From a virus, in IMG/VR virus record IMGVR_UViG_3300033143_002031, positions 96,001 to 160,000 of that record: a stretch of 64,000 nt of DNA; one strand, given 5' to 3'. Under the pieces are notes generated by a model. That model ran no database searches, was not told the DNA's origin, and was given only the letters and a program-made list of their open reading frames with translations. Position numbers and translations under genes: made by a program. This document shows, piece by piece, positions 49,879 through 55,919 of this stretch (within the stretch, counting starts at the first letter, position 1; every line of letters begins with the position of its first letter).

Positions 49879-50556
49879 ATGATGGTCAAGATGGGTAGAA
49901 AACGATCCAGCGGGAAGCCCCCCGGCCGGAGCACCCGATTCAAGAAGCTGCGAGCCCTCGCGTGCTACCAAGAGGTCTACGAGCGCATTTGCGCTGGGTG
50001 GCCTCTCGCGCAGGTGGCGCGGTTCGTCCAGGAGGAGCGGCGCGAGTACACCGCAATCTCTTGCCACGGGCTCGAACAGCAGTTGGCCGAGTTCCGGAAG
50101 GAGATGCCTCCAGGGGACCTTGTGCAGAAGCGGTTTCCGGAGGTCTTCGACGAGGCGAAGAAGAAGGTCGAAGAGGGCATCGACGAACTGGTCGAACTGG
50201 AGGAGCTATACCGAATCCAGATGCACCGTGTTGGAGTGGACTTCGCCACTGAGAAGGGGATCGGAAAACTCATGCCGTCGATGACGGGAGAGATCCGAGA
50301 GGCCCGGAACATCTTGAAGGACATGGCCGACCTGAAGCTGGAGATGGGCGTCCTCGGTCGTGCGCCTCGGGGTGTGGATGTCAACGTCGGTGTCGAGGTG
50401 GAGGCTACGCTCTCCGAGAGCGTCCTAGCCAAGTTCGGTGACGGGGCTGTCGCGAAGGTGTTGGAGGACCCCGAATCACGCCGGAAGGTCATGGGGGTCA
50501 TGGAGCGGTTTCTGCGGTTGCCAGAGGGCACCAAGCCTCCCGAAGGGTCCAACTAG
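49879..50556 (+). CDS. Putative terminase small subunit
   Basis: Immediately upstream of TerL; N-terminal HTH-like segment and coiled coil; true start may be ATG 49891 (leaderless, after TATGAT). Confidence 0.6.
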   Translation: MMVKMGRKRSSGKPPGRSTRFKKLRALACYQEVYERICAGWPLAQVARFVQEERREYTAISCHGLEQQLAEFRKEMPPGDLVQKRFPEVFDEAKKKVEEGIDELVELEELYRIQMHRVGVDFATEKGIGKLMPSMTGEIREARNILKDMADLKLEMGVLGRAPRGVDVNVGVEVEATLSESVLAKFGDGAVAKVLEDPESRRKVMGVMERFLRLPEGTKPPEGSN

Positions 50557-50565
50557 GACCACCGC

Positions 50566-53500
50566 ATGATCGAGTACGAGAATGGCCACTGGCGGTCAGT
50601 GCGGACGCCGCAGGAGGGGACCGGGCTCCTGGAGAGAGACCTGGAGACCCTCACCTCCGAGGAGCGCGAGACGATCGGGGTTCTCATGGCCGAGCTAGCG
50701 GACCCCGCCGCGTCTGCCGGGCTCCTCCAGACCATCGGCAACCTGGAGTGGCTACGCACCCCGGTGGACATGCAAACTTTCTGCATGGACCCGTACTACC
50801 TCGGGAACACCTGCGACAACCTGTACCCGAGGCTCCTGGAGGACATCACCGCGCTGTTCGAGGAGGGCTATCGGGAGGCGGTCCTCACGGGCGCGATCGG
50901 GTGGGGGAAGACCTTCGCTGCGTCCATCGGCATCTGCCGGCTTCTGTACATCCTGAGTTGCATGCGGGACCCCCACCGTTCTTTCGGAATCGCAGCCAAC
51001 TCGAACATCTCGATCGTCTGCCTCTCGGTCAACGAGATCCTGGCCACCAAGGTCGCCTACGAGAACATCGCTACCAAGATCGAGGCGAGCCCCTACTTTC
51101 AGGAAAACTTCCCGTTCGAGAAGACAAAGAAGGAACTTCGCTTCCCACGCAAGGTGTGGGTGGCCGCGCGTGCGAGCAACGACGGCTCGGTCTTGGGGCT
51201 AAATGTTATTGGAGGCTTGCTGGATGAATGTGTGCCAGTCGGGTCGCTGGTGCTGCTCGGGGATGGTAAACAGGCTCGTGTGGAGACGTTGGTCGGTCGG
51301 ACCGATGTGGTGGTCGAGACGTTCGACTTCGAGCTAGGTCACGCTGTGCCAGCACAGGCGTTCGTGAAATGGTCGTCGGAGCAGCCGTGTTACGAGTTGG
51401 AGTTGGATAACGGTGGAGTGATGCGCGGGTCGGCCGATCACCCTGTTGCAGTTCGACAGGTTGACGGCACCTTCACTTTCAACGTAATGGGCGCTATCCT
51501 GGACGGGCAGGAGGTTGTGGTTCATGCCCCGATGGACGGAGGAGCGCCGGAAAGCTCATTCGGAGCGGATGAAGGCTCTGTGGGCGGAGGGACGATACAA
51601 GGACCGGGAGATGTCACCCGAGGGTCGCGAGAGGCAGGTTTCGGCGGTGCGGCAGATGCACGCGGAGGGACGGGGCTTTGTTCCGCCTCCGATGGAGGGG
51701 ACCGACAACCCGATGTATGGGAAGCGGCTCTCCGACTCGCAGAAAGAGCGCATAGGCGAAGTGAGCAGAGGCAGGCGGTGGTCGGACGAGGACCGCAAGC
51801 GCATGTCCGAGCAGCGGACCGGGAAGCCGGTCCACTCACAAGAGTTCAAGGACGCGCTGGCCGAACGCAACCGGGAGCGCAAGGGCAAGTTCAAGCACAC
51901 CGAGGAGACCAAACAGAAGATCTCCGAATCGAACATCTGGAAACTCCGCAAGGGGGACTTCCGCTACTTGGGTTGGGCGCAGACGACCAAGGCAGGGCGT
52001 GTCGGTTTCCGCAGTCTGTACGAATTGAGAGCCATCGAGTTGTTGGAGGCGGACTCCTCTGTGACGCGGTTCGAGTACGAGAAGCTGGCGGTCTCCTACT
52101 CGTTGAACGGGACGACCCGCCGCACGGTGCCGGACTTTCGAGTCTGGGGCGACAGGGATCGTGTGATCGAGGTCAAGCCCCGGGGCTTCACCTACCATTG
52201 GAAGGAGAAGCTCAAGATGGGTGCCGCGCGGCGCTACTGCGAGGAGCACGGCTTGGAGTACGTAGTCTGGGACGAGAGCTTTCTGTGGCCCGCGTCGTGT
52301 CCAAGAGAGACGTGGGAGTGCAGCCTACCTACGACGTTTCGGTCCCAGGGTACGAGTGCTTCGTCGTAGACGGGGTTCTCGTCCACAACACCAACTTCAT
52401 GCCCAAGGCGAGCAAGGGGCAGGACCCGAGGTTCAACCTTCAGGACCGGGCCGAGGTGCTGTACAACGCCATGCAGCGCCGGATGAAGTCCAGGTTCGAG
52501 CGCAAGGGACGGCTGCCCGGCATTCTGTTCGTCGTCTCCTCGAAGCAGACCAACGATGACTTCACGGCCAAGCGGGTCAAAGAGTCGATTCTCGACCCGA
52601 CAGTGTTCGTGCGGGATTACGCTCTTTGGGACGTCAAGCCGGACATCTACTACTCTGACGACTGGTTCCATGTGGTGGTGGGGAACGAGCAAGCTCCCAG
52701 TCGAATCATCGAGGTCGATGAAGACCTCGATGAGGTGAGGGTGCTGCTCCCCGAGGACTGCGTTGTGATCGAAGTTCCGGAGGACTTCCGAGTAGACTTC
52801 GAGAAAGACTTGGAAGGGGCCATCCGGGACCTTGCGGGCGTGGCCACCGTCTCCGTGAGCCCCTACATCCAACGCCGTACCAAGATCGTTGAAGCCATCC
52901 GTCCGGGCATGAAGCACCCTTTCAGCGTGGAGGTGTACGACCCCTCGCAGCCGGGGAGGTTCTACTGGCACAAGATGCTGCGGGCTGCTTCGGACGCCGA
53001 GGGCGGCAACAGGCCCATCCTGAGCCCCTACGCTCCCCGACACATCCACATCGACCCGTCGATGACAGGCGACTCCACAGGCTTCGCCATGGGGCACATC
53101 TCAGGCTGGCGTGAGGTCGTCCGGAGGGACGACGAGGGGAACAAGTACCCCGAGCGTGCTCCGGAGATCACGTTCGACGTGCTCTTGAAGATCGTCCCGC
53201 CTATCGGAGGGGAGATCGTCCTCGGCGAGATACGAAAACTCGTCTACCAGTTGAGCAAGCACGGGTACATGATCACCTGCGTGTCGATCGACTCGTGGAA
53301 CTCCGCCGACGCGATCCAGAAGTTGAATCAGCGAGGCTTCAACGCGATCCAGTTGTCGATCGACAGGACGATGGGACCCTACGACCTTCTGAAGACGGGC
53401 CTCTACGAGGACCGCATCTACTACTACGAATACGAGCCTCTCCTTCGGGAGCTACGCGAGGTCGAGCACGACCGCATGAAGCACAAGGTGGACCACCCGC

Positions 53501-53742
53501 TGCGTGGCTCGAAGGATATTTCAGACGCAGCGGCCGGGGTCATGTGGACGCTCACTGAAAACTCCTCCGCACTGCCTCTCCCCATCCTCCGCAGCGTTCC
53601 GCAGAACGGGGATGCGTGGATGCAGGAGCACCAGCAAGCGGCGATGGCGAGGAGCTACGGGAGCGAGGACACCTCGGATATGTCGGAGAGTACGGCTTTG
53701 CCTCCGTTTCTGGTAGGCTCTGGAAGCGATTGGGGCGACTGA
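50566..53742 (+). CDS. terL: Terminase large subunit containing an intein
   Basis: Walker A TGAIGWGKT, Walker B GLLDE immediately before the intein, VSS, nuclease HIHID.S...DSTG, KDISDA. Confidence 0.93.
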   Translation: MIEYENGHWRSVRTPQEGTGLLERDLETLTSEERETIGVLMAELADPAASAGLLQTIGNLEWLRTPVDMQTFCMDPYYLGNTCDNLYPRLLEDITALFEEGYREAVLTGAIGWGKTFAASIGICRLLYILSCMRDPHRSFGIAANSNISIVCLSVNEILATKVAYENIATKIEASPYFQENFPFEKTKKELRFPRKVWVAARASNDGSVLGLNVIGGLLDECVPVGSLVLLGDGKQARVETLVGRTDVVVETFDFELGHAVPAQAFVKWSSEQPCYELELDNGGVMRGSADHPVAVRQVDGTFTFNVMGAILDGQEVVVHAPMDGGAPESSFGADEGSVGGGTIQGPGDVTRGSREAGFGGAADARGGTGLCSASDGGDRQPDVWEAALRLAERAHRRSEQRQAVVGRGPQAHVRAADREAGPLTRVQGRAGRTQPGAQGQVQAHRGDQTEDLRIEHLETPQGGLPLLGLGADDQGRACRFPQSVRIESHRVVGGGLLCDAVRVREAGGLLLVERDDPPHGAGLSSLGRQGSCDRGQAPGLHLPLEGEAQDGCRAALLRGARLGVRSLGRELSVARVVSKRDVGVQPTYDVSVPGYECFVVDGVLVHNTNFMPKASKGQDPRFNLQDRAEVLYNAMQRRMKSRFERKGRLPGILFVVSSKQTNDDFTAKRVKESILDPTVFVRDYALWDVKPDIYYSDDWFHVVVGNEQAPSRIIEVDEDLDEVRVLLPEDCVVIEVPEDFRVDFEKDLEGAIRDLAGVATVSVSPYIQRRTKIVEAIRPGMKHPFSVEVYDPSQPGRFYWHKMLRAASDAEGGNRPILSPYAPRHIHIDPSMTGDSTGFAMGHISGWREVVRRDDEGNKYPERAPEITFDVLLKIVPPIGGEIVLGEIRKLVYQLSKHGYMITCVSIDSWNSADAIQKLNQRGFNAIQLSIDRTMGPYDLLKTGLYEDRIYYYEYEPLLRELREVEHDRMKHKVDHPLRGSKDISDAAAGVMWTLTENSSALPLPILRSVPQNGDAWMQEHQQAAMARSYGSEDTSDMSESTALPPFLVGSGSDWGD
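51229..52389 (+). mobile_element. Intein (387 aa) with out-of-frame internal endonuclease gene
   Basis: Starts CVPVGSLV, block B SADHP, ends YDVSV...FVVDGVLVHN followed by Thr; the in-frame middle of about 250 aa has no recognisable domain. Confidence 0.92.
51524..52369 (+). CDS. NUMOD3-repeat / TnsA-like PD-(D/E)XK homing endonuclease in the +1 frame of the intein
   Basis: AGGAGG SD at about 51509-51514 and ATG 51524; NPMYGK..S, HTEETKQKIS; FRS.YE...YE...PDF...IEVKP. Confidence 0.88.
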   Translation: MPRWTEERRKAHSERMKALWAEGRYKDREMSPEGRERQVSAVRQMHAEGRGFVPPPMEGTDNPMYGKRLSDSQKERIGEVSRGRRWSDEDRKRMSEQRTGKPVHSQEFKDALAERNRERKGKFKHTEETKQKISESNIWKLRKGDFRYLGWAQTTKAGRVGFRSLYELRAIELLEADSSVTRFEYEKLAVSYSLNGTTRRTVPDFRVWGDRDRVIEVKPRGFTYHWKEKLKMGAARRYCEEHGLEYVVWDESFLWPASCPRETWECSLPTTFRSQGTSASS

Positions 53743-53781
53743 TCGGTTTCCACGCTCGGTCGCACGTGGTATTAGAGCAGC

Positions 53782-54123
53782 ATGGACAGCGAACTCAGGC
53801 GGCAACTGGAGGAGATCTTCGGAGGCGACATGAACGTCGCACCCGGGGGTACAGGAGCCGTGCTCATTCGCCCATCGAAGTTGTCTTTGGAGGTCGCGCA
53901 GCAAGCCGTCAGGGCTATGCCGATAGACGGGTTGTATCGAGACGTAGGTGCTGTCGCAGCGCGTGTCCTAGCGGATGAACTGGAGAGGCAGTCTCTCCGG
54001 CCGGCGGACTACGCTAACCTCCCCGATCTTCCGAAGGCAGCAGCGAAGCGAATCGTTGGCTACCTTCTCCGGTCGGAGGAGTTTGCTCGGTCGTTCTCCG
54101 AGCACCTGGCCGCGAGGGGATAG
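53782..54123 (+). CDS. Hypothetical protein
   Basis: Between TerL and portal; possibly leaderless (TTTCCA-17-TATTAG-6-ATG). Confidence 0.6.
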   Translation: MDSELRRQLEEIFGGDMNVAPGGTGAVLIRPSKLSLEVAQQAVRAMPIDGLYRDVGAVAARVLADELERQSLRPADYANLPDLPKAAAKRIVGYLLRSEEFARSFSEHLAARG

Positions 54124-55919
54124 TGGGCGCTGTACAGAATGTTGTTGATCGCCTGCGTGGTGCGTTTGTCTCGGATAAGGAACGGGGAGGGCAACTACTC
54201 GCCAAGGGCAGCACCTCTCCAACGTATCCGGACTCTGGGTACGACCTGCTTCAAGCCTACGGCTACGATGCTCTGTCGGACTATCTCCGGTTGGAGCACG
54301 ATCTCCTCAGTCGCTATGTCGACTACGAGGAGATGGACGACTACCCCGAGGTCTCGTCGGCCATCGACATCTACGCGGACGACGCCTCACAGCCGGACAC
54401 GCAACTCCAGCGCACCGTGTGGGTGTCCAGTCCGGACAAGACCCTTCAGGGCGTGCTCGACGATCTGTTCCATAAGCGGCTCCGCCTGGACGAGGAAATC
54501 TGGGAAATCGTGCGCTCCCTGGTGAAGTACGGGAACGACTACGAAGAGTTGCTCGTCAATCAGGATGGCGTGGTCGGCTTGAACTTCCTTCCGGCGCCGA
54601 CTGTGCGCCGGGTGGAAGGCCCTCGTGGGGAACTGTACGGGTTCGTCCAGGACTTCAAAGGCCGGTTCGGCTACTCTCCGCAGGAGTTTCAGAAGATCCT
54701 AACCCAGCGCACGGACGCTATCCGTCAGGTCACGCAGCCGGGCGCCGCTCGACCCCCGGGCAACATGCTACAGCGCGTCTCTGCGCTGGAGCCTTGGGAG
54801 GTGTCGCACTTCCGCTTGCGCGGGAAGCACCGCCGGAGCGTGTACGGCTACTCGGTCCTCGAATCGTCACGGTGGATATGGAAGCGGCTCATGCTGCTCG
54901 AAGATGCCGCGATGATTTATCGACTCCAGCGAGCGCCCGAGCGCTTCGCCTTCTATGTCGACGTCGGCGATCTACCTCCGGCCGAGGCGTTGGCGTTCGT
55001 CAACAAGATCCGGCAGCAGCACAAGAAGAAGCGGTTCGTCAACCCGTCTACCGGCAAACTCGATATGAAATTCGAGCCGCTGTCCCAGGATGACGACTTC
55101 TGGGTTCCGGTGCGTAAGGGTGTGGAGGGTACGCGGATCGAGGTACTCGGCGGCCCGTCCTGGCAGCACATGGACGACGTAGAGTATTTCCAGACGAAGC
55201 TGTTCACCGCAATGAAGGTGCCCAAGGCGTACCTGGCTCAGGACGACAACACGGCAAGAGCGGTCCTCTCTAGCGAGGATGTCCGGTTCGCACGGTCTGT
55301 CTTGCGAGTCCAGCGGGAGGTCCGCAACGGTCTTCGCAAGGTGGCCCGGACGCACCTGGCGGCGCTCAATATCGACCCCTACGCGAGCGACTACACCATC
55401 CACATGACCGTGCCTTCGGCCATCTTCGAGTTGGCTCAGTTGGAGGTACGGAACGCGCGGGCTGACTTGGCTTCGCGTATGCGCGAGCATGTCTCGCTGC
55501 GGTGGGTGTTGGAGAACATCTACCAGCTATCGGACGAGGACATCAAACTCATCATTCAAGAGCGGTCCGAGGATGTGATCCGAGAGGGCAAGGCTCAGGC
55601 CGAGGTCGAGAAGATGAGCGCCATGGCGCAGGCTTCGGTAGAGCAGGCATCGGGTGGAGGTGGAGGTGGTGGCGGTGGCGTGGAGTCGCTCGCAGCCCCT
55701 TCGGGTATGCGGAGGCTCGAACGCAAGATCGCTGCGATACCCCGTCAGTTGCGTGGGGCTATCACCGAGAAGGAGCTTCTAAGAGGGAATCGCGAGGCCG
55801 AGAAGCGGGCCGAGGGAAAGTTGGACAGCATCCTCCGGTCGAACAGTGCGAACAGCCAACGCTTGCGGGAGAGCGTGGCGCTTCTCCGAGAGGTCGTGGC
55901 AGCGGCGCATGGCCGCTGA
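54123..55919 (+). CDS. Portal protein, T4 gp20-like
   Basis: YEEMDDYPEVSSAID, LEDA.MIYRLQRAPER..FYVDVG.LP, DDFW.P.R.G..GT.I..L.G, DVEYFQ.KL..A.KVP, EDVRF. Confidence 0.93.
   Translation: MGAVQNVVDRLRGAFVSDKERGGQLLAKGSTSPTYPDSGYDLLQAYGYDALSDYLRLEHDLLSRYVDYEEMDDYPEVSSAIDIYADDASQPDTQLQRTVWVSSPDKTLQGVLDDLFHKRLRLDEEIWEIVRSLVKYGNDYEELLVNQDGVVGLNFLPAPTVRRVEGPRGELYGFVQDFKGRFGYSPQEFQKILTQRTDAIRQVTQPGAARPPGNMLQRVSALEPWEVSHFRLRGKHRRSVYGYSVLESSRWIWKRLMLLEDAAMIYRLQRAPERFAFYVDVGDLPPAEALAFVNKIRQQHKKKRFVNPSTGKLDMKFEPLSQDDDFWVPVRKGVEGTRIEVLGGPSWQHMDDVEYFQTKLFTAMKVPKAYLAQDDNTARAVLSSEDVRFARSVLRVQREVRNGLRKVARTHLAALNIDPYASDYTIHMTVPSAIFELAQLEVRNARADLASRMREHVSLRWVLENIYQLSDEDIKLIIQERSEDVIREGKAQAEVEKMSAMAQASVEQASGGGGGGGGGVESLAAPSGMRRLERKIAAIPRQLRGAITEKELLRGNREAEKRAEGKLDSILRSNSANSQRLRESVALLREVVAAAHGR

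Follow-up and report, generated by a model that had tools for sequence, protein, structure and literature searches.

A terminase-like gene of an uncultivated phage carries an intein with a TnsA-like nuclease gene overprinted in the +1 frame

The stretch of DNA analysed here (the window) comprises 64,000 nucleotides, positions 96,001 to 160,000 of IMG/VR record IMGVR_UViG_3300033143_002031, a sequence of 184,744 bases from an uncultivated phage. It encodes a packaging ATPase-nuclease resembling the large terminase subunit (TerL) that is interrupted directly after its Walker B motif by an intein, and the central part of this intein contains, in the +1 frame, a complete nuclease gene with its own Shine-Dalgarno (SD) sequence and ATG. 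An earlier note made from the sequence had described this arrangement, and its coordinates for the TerL frame, the intein ends, the +1 open reading frame (ORF) and the AGGAGG motif were all borne out. Over the body of the nuclease, purifying selection acts on the nuclease frame and the host frame is selected solely against stop codons. We infer with good confidence that the element is a cis-splicing terminase intein with an overprinted homing nuclease, which would be translated separately, cleave intein-less copies of the terminase gene and thereby home.

The junctions of the intein were defined at the level of single codons. TGT (Cys1) at 51229 directly follows LLDE, CAC AAC ends the intein at 52384-52389 and ACC (Thr) begins the C-extein at 52390. 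A comparison with intein-less TerL genes, proposed in the earlier note, gave 11 related alleles reading ...DE^(T/S)NF... at the same boundary (^ marks the junction), and at the equivalent position the intein-less alleles L001-L007 read LLDE^TNFMPK. Cysteine was found at intein position 1 in all homologues with the N junction present on the contig. Block B includes S-A-D-H in the window and SxxH or TxxH in the homologues (SEDH, SWNH, SGDH, SWRH, TARH, TDEH), while the C-terminal junction is VLVHN^T in the window with T, S or C as the +1 residue in homologues. The C-terminal block pattern from 52283 is ARVVSKR..GVQPTYD.SVPG......LVHN. Pfam Intein_splicing (PF14890) was matched at profile positions 3-155 of 155 by intein residues 10-387 with an E-value of 3.4e-6, and the score of 27.4 bits lies under the cut-off of 35.8 because approximately 250 residues are inserted in the middle of the domain. 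The N-terminal part of the intein alone had no sequence match in the PDB. Close relatives from public sequencing runs differed from the window in the N-terminal blocks at 28 displayed positions, 22 of which were at TerL codon position 3 by a hand count. In layout the insert is a contiguous class-1-type intein at the Walker B site and is predicted to splice. A split intein or fractured gene was considered and ruled out, there being no host-frame stop in the window or in eight homologues.

The nuclease ORF runs from ATG 51524 (earliest possible start TTG 51515) to TAG 52367-52369, and its frame is closed upstream by TAA 51485-51487. Profile searches of both frames agreed with the earlier note in finding a nuclease in the +1 frame, where the product scored above the cut-offs for NUMOD3 (PF07460; 33.0 bits, cut-off 20.4) and Tn7_TnsA-like_N (PF08722; 34.2 bits, cut-off 26.5), whereas the TerL-frame reading of 51520-52290 matched no Pfam family. 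The nuclease family profile (alignment A1) matched the DNA-binding domain of I-TevI (1i3j) at residues 55-87 with an E-value of 0.006. The best PDB matches of the nuclease model in Foldseek were the TnsA structures 1t0f and 1f1z (E 5e-6 to 2e-5, probability 1.00). Residues E167, E172, D204 and E216-x-K218 were invariant in the nuclease homologues, with the PDF...IEVK sequence constituting the PD-(D/E)xK signature, and these residues are presumably equivalent to E63/D114/K132 of TnsA. The number of NUMOD3-type repeats differed among homologues, and the host frame was open across the extra repeats too. An identity as the TnsA transposase subunit was rejected since NCBIfam NF033179 (TnsA_like_Actin) gave 32.7 bits against a cut-off of 110 and the gene is located in a terminase intein and not in a transposon. 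The enzyme is predicted to function as a homing or free-standing phage nuclease and not as a transposase subunit.

A stop in the TerL frame requires a T-ending nuclease codon before a codon starting with AA, AG or GA, and the many Lys, Glu, Asp, Arg and Asn residues of the nuclease give the window 80 such contexts. The stop expectation, which the earlier note had suggested simulating, was computed by exact dynamic programming under a codon-usage null, and 8.4-8.7 stops were expected in the window with 0 observed (P(0) ~1e-4). For the homologues the same null gave P(0) from 6e-5 to 4e-8 per sequence. As the sole null this independent-codon model was dropped for being too generous, since T before AA, AG and GA is under-represented in ordinary genes of the window as well. 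In these genes T-ending codons accounted for 21 of the 458 codons in such contexts (4.6%), and their corresponding shadow frame had approximately 1.2 stops per 100 codons. A conservative null using the 4.6% rate returned P ~1e-16 for the 785 contexts of the window and its eight homologues, nine sequences that share descent. Among these, T-ending nuclease codons numbered 0/785 before AA, AG or GA versus 320/1801 elsewhere (Fisher p 5e-55).

Host-frame stops were 0 in each of the nine sequences while third-frame stops numbered 5-15 in each, including 8 over the nuclease gene of the window. The corresponding frame of a free-standing, low G+C relative of the nuclease (L030) contained 29 stops. Between sequences the proportion of synonymous differences (pS) was 0.62-0.81, so that synonymous sites are near saturation and have largely turned over. 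The open host frame is maintained by selection and is not a by-product of composition, because none of the 785 risky codons ends in T when ordinary genes yield approximately 1.2 stops per 100 codons. The explanation offered in the earlier note, that the shadow frame lacks stops merely due to codons rich in G+C at the third position (GC3), is insufficient on the same grounds. The linker so kept open included 47 Gly, 31 Arg and 30 Ala among 253 residues.

Protein-level constraint over the overlap depended on the frame and on the position. Across the nuclease body (51524-52282), differences peaked at nuclease codon position 3, amino-acid identity was 38-70% in the nuclease frame versus 22-44% in the TerL frame, and the ratio of non-synonymous to synonymous differences (pN/pS) was 0.33-0.44 when the sequence was read as nuclease and 1.3-1.6 when it was read as TerL. 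Constraint over this central part lay in the +1 frame, as the earlier note had expected. From 52283, in the last 87 nucleotides of the nuclease ORF, the relation was reversed with pN/pS of 0.27-0.38 in the TerL frame and 1.35-2.3 in the nuclease frame, and differences in this tail peaked at the second position of nuclease codons, equivalent to the third position of TerL codons. The last ~29 codons of the nuclease are a passenger on the C-terminal blocks of the intein, where constraint is handed to the host frame. The features of the locus are given in Table 1.

Table 1. Coordinates of the terminase-like gene, its intein and the overprinted nuclease gene in the window
Feature	Position	Strand	Description	Basis
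TerL-like packaging ATPase-nuclease precursor ORF	50566..53742	+	1058 codons; 671 aa without the intein	single open frame
N-extein	50566..51228	+	221 codons; ends in Walker B ...GGLLDE	colinear with intein-less alleles L001-L007
Intein	51229..52389	+	387 codons in the TerL frame; Cys1...His-Asn, +1 Thr	Pfam Intein_splicing; empty alleles
N-terminal splicing blocks	51229..51520	+	block A CVPVGSLVLLGDG, block B GSADHP, then ...LDGQEVVVHA	alignment A2
SD-like AGGAGG of the nuclease gene	51509..51514	+	within conserved intein codons G-Q-E-V-V; 9 nt before the ATG	
Shadow-frame intein linker	51521..52282	+	~254 TerL-frame codons; Gly/Arg/Ala 43%; no aromatic-rich core	stops 0
Nuclease gene, +1 frame	51524..52369	+	281 codons + TAG; wholly within the intein	ORF, Pfam, pN/pS
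N-terminal DNA-binding half of the nuclease	51524..51958	+	NUMOD3-type repeats; residues ~1-145	Pfam NUMOD3; helical model, pLDDT (predicted local distance difference test) 45-75
TnsA-like PD-(D/E)xK catalytic domain	51971..52288	+	residues ~150-255	AlphaFold2 (AF2) pLDDT ~85-96
C-terminal splicing blocks	52283..52389	+	...ARVVSKRDVGVQPTYDVSVPGYECFVVDGVLVHN; 52283-52369 doubles as the passenger tail of the nuclease ORF	selection switch
C-extein	52390..53742	+	450 codons + stop; begins TNFMPKASKG	

The same layout was present in eight other independent metagenomic sequences drawn from different metagenomes (L014, L015/L018, L016, L017, L019/L020, L026, L027 and L028/L029, where L015 and L018 are the same phage). 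In all eight the TerL and intein frame was open across the whole nuclease gene, which was itself in the +1 frame. Where measured, the nucleases were 43-71% identical to that of the window. Three further contigs of 5.6-10 kb from three studies, with approximately 88-91% DNA identity, aligned to the window with 0 gaps over 51100-52500, 51283-52500 and 51454-52500 and carried 169, 132 and 95 substitutions, respectively. An assembly or sequencing artefact, in which two compensating indels had shifted an endonuclease domain that is really in frame, is extremely improbable given the same frame relation in eight other independent assemblies, the gap-free alignment of the three contigs and a stop avoidance at the codon level that is specific to the host frame. 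The assembly indel that the earlier note had named as a potential refutation was excluded by these data. A 251-nucleotide contig of depth 4 displayed three small indels at 51650-51662, with only 40 nucleotides of match and unlike sequence on both sides. The relatives at approximately 88-91% identity, which carry the same intein (51100-52500), came from freshwater sediment, soil and sediment metagenomes (runs X1, X2 and X7), and no public sequencing run contained more than 11% of the sampled words.

The start of the nuclease gene was conserved together with its SD sequence. In an alignment of the N junction from five sequences, ATG (window, L014, L016) or TTG (L015, L017) shared a single column, and a GAGG or AAGG core was located 9 nucleotides before this column in all five, within the codons of a conserved G-x-E-V-V. 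The same arrangement in L019 (GAGGAGG, 9 nucleotides, ATG) brought the total to six sequences, while in L026 and L027 the distance between a GAGG core and the ATG was different (6-12 nucleotides) and the nuclease start of L028 was uncertain. The conserved SD sequence and start column, and a TAA 12 codons upstream of the window ATG that closes the nuclease frame, point to independent initiation and not to frameshifting. Programmed frameshifting, by +1 near 51500-51524 and back again near 52290, would place the endonuclease in frame within the intein protein. Local hairpins over the junction, in which the SD sequence is paired, were predicted for four of the five relatives (z -1.7 to -2.4) and would favour such a mechanism; the z of the window itself was +0.65 and the consensus RNA structure at the nuclease start (-2.4 kcal/mol, 5 pairs) was unsupported. 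Frameshifting would also not require the ~254 stop-free host codons that hold in nine lineages and, with the conserved start column, is considered very unlikely.

Hairpins pairing the SD sequence with an upstream CCU-rich stretch were observed at window 51497-51512 and at the homologous places in L015, L016 and L019, although their register varied and the statistics were weak. As a lead only, these hairpins may control translation in the way described for other phage homing endonuclease genes. A promoter scan of 50400-54200, which has little weight for a phage, found no sigma-70-like site.

The distribution of the intein among related terminase genes was scattered. On a tree of extein columns the Walker B intein needed four changes for four rows, with the starred branches forcing at least three. 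The window extein was 91% identical to those of intein-less L001 and L007, and L019 was sister to the empty allele L010 with support of 100/100. Comparison of L016:1-1475 with window 51229-52900 revealed a mosaic, where the C-terminal intein blocks and the C-extein had 95% and 83% nucleotide identity while the nuclease body and N-terminal blocks had 48-51%, the nuclease body alone 48%. This indicates a recombination breakpoint at the boundary of nuclease and intein and suggests that the nuclease cassette was swapped between inteins. The scattered distribution and the L016 mosaic fit horizontal spread, without proving homing.

It is conceivable, but unlikely, that the nuclease gene is a relic, with a vertically inherited mini-intein containing a long spacer whose +1 ORF is no longer an active homing enzyme. 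Expression and cleavage of the nuclease are inferences, and a 2025 preprint (10.1101/2025.01.02.630785) reasoned that secondary ORFs should decay once homing stops. The +1 frame was instead intact in nine diverged lineages with the low pN/pS given above, the E/D/ExK residues were invariant, the start column was conserved and the intein was scattered among intein-less alleles with mosaic exchange seen.

There is also a small chance that the nuclease is active in a role other than, or in addition to, homing, for example cutting the DNA of competitors or excluding co-infecting relatives, with the intein providing a safe landing pad. The NUMOD3/TnsA-like family is large, with the profile search returning 3559 representatives at E-values up to 1e-10, and includes the free-standing L030, where the nuclease gene lies among structural genes, between unrelated ORFs, and is more distant than the nearest representatives. 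Those nearest to the window (the nearest eight, P0003, P0005 and P0017-P0022, together with P0023) were located inside or beside TerL inteins wherever the DNA or gene calls were readable, with P0019 and P0021 excluded, and intein and nuclease co-occurred in diverged exteins as a homing unit would. No second copy of the nuclease was found in the 184.7-kb record, and INPHARED contained no DNA match to the gene and no protein match to the nuclease.

The preferred interpretation, a cis-splicing intein with a separately translated homing nuclease, would operate in three steps. Ribosomes translating terL would read through the ~254 shadow-frame codons and produce a Gly/Arg/Ala-rich, probably disordered linker, after which the N- and C-terminal HINT blocks would fold together and excise the 387-residue intein to leave a 671-residue TerL. 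Other ribosomes would initiate at ATG 51524, 9 nucleotides past the AGGAGG embedded in the conserved G-x-E-V-V intein codons, and synthesize a 281-residue enzyme consisting of an I-TevI-like NUMOD3 DNA-binding half and a TnsA-like PD-(D/E)xK catalytic half. In mixed infections this nuclease would cut intein-less terL near GAYGAR^ACCAAYTTYATG, and repair would copy the intein and nuclease in.

Several points weigh against this interpretation. The identity of the host gene leans on a weak PHROG match (E 4.6e-5), motifs and gene order, with no Pfam or PDB sequence match. The Pfam intein score falls short of the gathering cut-off, and the AF2 model of the whole intein, computed from a five-row alignment (A2), had a mean pLDDT of 32 and was uninformative for the HINT fold or linker disorder. 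Under the conservative null the window by itself gave a P of only ~0.02, and the pooled p-values overstate independence since the nine sequences share descent. There was also no RNA among the listed public runs.

The extein carries a Walker A motif (GAIGWGKT) in addition to the LLDE Walker B. The intein-less allele L001 (L001:3001-4992) matched PHROG phrog_2 'terminase large subunit' over residues 93-613 and had further, weaker TerL matches in PHROG. No terminase family was matched in Pfam, NCBIfam or PDB sequence searches with the intein-less TerL, or with its profile in the case of the PDB. A T4-like portal gene (54123-55919; PF07230, E 3e-72) is located directly downstream. In the ESM Atlas the TerL-like protein falls in viral clusters carrying PF27249 (MJ0330_N), which is also listed for P0018 and P0036. 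The weak PHROG match, the Walker motifs, the size and the downstream portal gene weakly suggest that the extein is a large terminase, and the protein is referred to as TerL-like.

Two relatives showed the nuclease joined to the N-terminal part of the intein. The 1045-residue product P0018 contains the TerL N-extein, a Walker A intein and the N-terminal blocks of the Walker B intein in frame with the nuclease, such that ~65 linker-frame residues are followed by the nuclease from approximately profile position 45, as read from the protein of a single contig. The next called gene begins 48 nucleotides past its stop, and P0018 may reflect either a natural frameshift or an error of assembly. In the low-GC sequence L024:1-3565, also a single contig, the N-extein, the N-terminal intein part, a zinc ribbon, NUMOD3 and the TnsA-like nuclease share one ORF (1-1857), while the C-terminal intein part and C-extein occupy a different frame (from 1712; internal ATG), with an overlap of ~68 nucleotides. 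L024 carries the insertion a few codons further upstream than the window does. L024 resembles a fractured gene with a split intein, or may carry a single indel.

The existence of L030 is consistent with a free-standing gene having invaded an intein. Tentatively, the family may preserve the steps by which an endonuclease invades an intein, from the free-standing L030 through the overprinted state (window and eight homologues) to fusion with the N-terminal half (L024 and possibly P0018). The same tentative proposal holds that overprinting is a stable strategy and not a passing accident, the linker being selected as stop-free and disordered for cis-splicing. Were this to be the case, a start signal within the intein codons, possibly masked by a hairpin, would uncouple the dosage and timing of the nuclease from TerL synthesis.

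Inteins were also found at other sites in these genes. The TerL ORF of one relative (L018:714-6095) has four, a LAGLIDADG-type insert after the Walker A GKC, the overprinted-nuclease intein after Walker B, an HNH-like one at DLEG^C...HN^S and a fourth from DHPPGG^C that runs off the contig. In the close relative L006:1431-4403 (82% identity) the Walker B site is empty and an in-frame HNH-like endonuclease intein is located at DHPLRG^C...HN^SKD, from which it follows that canonical and overprinted inteins coexist within the TerL-like family. In relatives, several sites of the T4-like portal gene are occupied by inteins (L004:3271-6150, L008:3256-6147, L006:4691-6268 and L011:4452-5978). Those of L004, L008 and L011 contain in-frame HNH-like inserts while that of L006 differs in site and appearance, and the portal gene of the window is without an intein. 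The terminase genes of several homologues had been called as two or three genes, and gene callers split or mis-annotate terminase genes of this kind.

Inteins with out-of-frame endonucleases have been described. The earlier note had regarded the layout as a departure from known inteins, a view that did not stand in light of two precedents (10.1101/2025.01.02.630785 and 10.64898/2026.09.14.751524). Gosselin, Arsenault and Gogarten reported non-canonical endonucleases, including antisense LAGLIDADG, antisense VSR-like and endonuclease VII-like types (the last in frame 3), in 63 actinophage inteins, of which many interrupt TerL, and proposed that free-standing endonuclease genes had invaded inteins (bioRxiv 10.1101/2025.01.02.630785). 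As in the window, those inteins are contiguous and patchily distributed, the endonuclease ORF lies between the splicing blocks and out of the intein frame, and the in-frame reading of the endonuclease part makes no recognisable structure. They differ in that their same-strand case is endonuclease VII-like in frame 3 and their PD-(D/E)xK-related VSR-like enzymes are antisense, whereas the window combines NUMOD3 with a TnsA-like domain in a +1-frame gene, and its phage belongs to an uncultivated lineage whose portal gene is T4-like. The text of that study does not mention NUMOD, lists no TnsA-like type and gives no stop-avoidance statistics.

Frame-dependent selection was described by Phillips, DeSimone and Gogarten for an out-of-frame LAGLIDADG gene in a cyanobacterial dnaX intein (bioRxiv 10.64898/2026.09.14.751524), a case first proposed, according to that preprint, by Gorbalenya in 1998. 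The dnaX intein likewise has a low omega (the ratio of non-synonymous to synonymous change) in the endonuclease frame and a raised one in the host frame over the overlap, is sporadic in distribution and was proposed to reflect secondary invasion of a mini-intein. It resides in a cellular gene with a LAGLIDADG enzyme in the +2 frame, unlike the phage terL and the TnsA-like enzyme in the +1 frame of the window.

Dassa et al. (2009) described split inteins with a free-standing endonuclease gene between the halves of fractured genes (PMC2677866). As in the window, the endonuclease gene occupies the endonuclease site of the intein, the host genes include phage terminases, and the endonuclease gene overlaps the downstream intein part at its own 3' end, by 6-69 bp there and by 87 nucleotides here. 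Those enzymes are GIY-YIG or Vsr-like, whereas the enzyme in the window is TnsA-like and its host frame has no stop, so that the intein is contiguous and cis-splicing is expected. The distant relative L024 approaches the fractured layout. Arsenault et al. (2025) identified a hidden out-of-frame HNH endonuclease in an insertion of a phage DNA methylase, the ShiLan domain (PMC11855218). There too an endonuclease ORF is overprinted on an insertion open in the host frame, but the ShiLan insertion lacks splicing domains and is presumed to be retained in the protein as a loop, whereas the window has intein blocks and junction residues.

The catalytic domain shares with TnsA of Tn7 (1f1z, 1t0f) a restriction-endonuclease-like fold and membership of the Pfam TnsA-like N family. 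The Foldseek match nevertheless spans only ~130-150 alignment columns of chains of 260-264 residues, and the N-terminal half consists of NUMOD3 repeats as in I-TevI-type enzymes. In the literature collection that was searched, no paper linked TnsA-like nucleases with inteins. The general design has already been published, and what is new here is the type of nuclease, the frame and the stop-avoidance statistics, a solid extension of that design and not a surprise. A TnsA-like PD-(D/E)xK enzyme with NUMOD3 repeats is added to the short list of intein-linked nucleases, and the locus is an unusually clear example of gene overlap, with selection for the protein in one frame and solely for the absence of stops in the other. 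The tolerated linker of ~250 residues is relevant to intein engineering. The family lends support to the gain of intein endonucleases via invasion by free-standing genes and offers natural intermediates toward split inteins.

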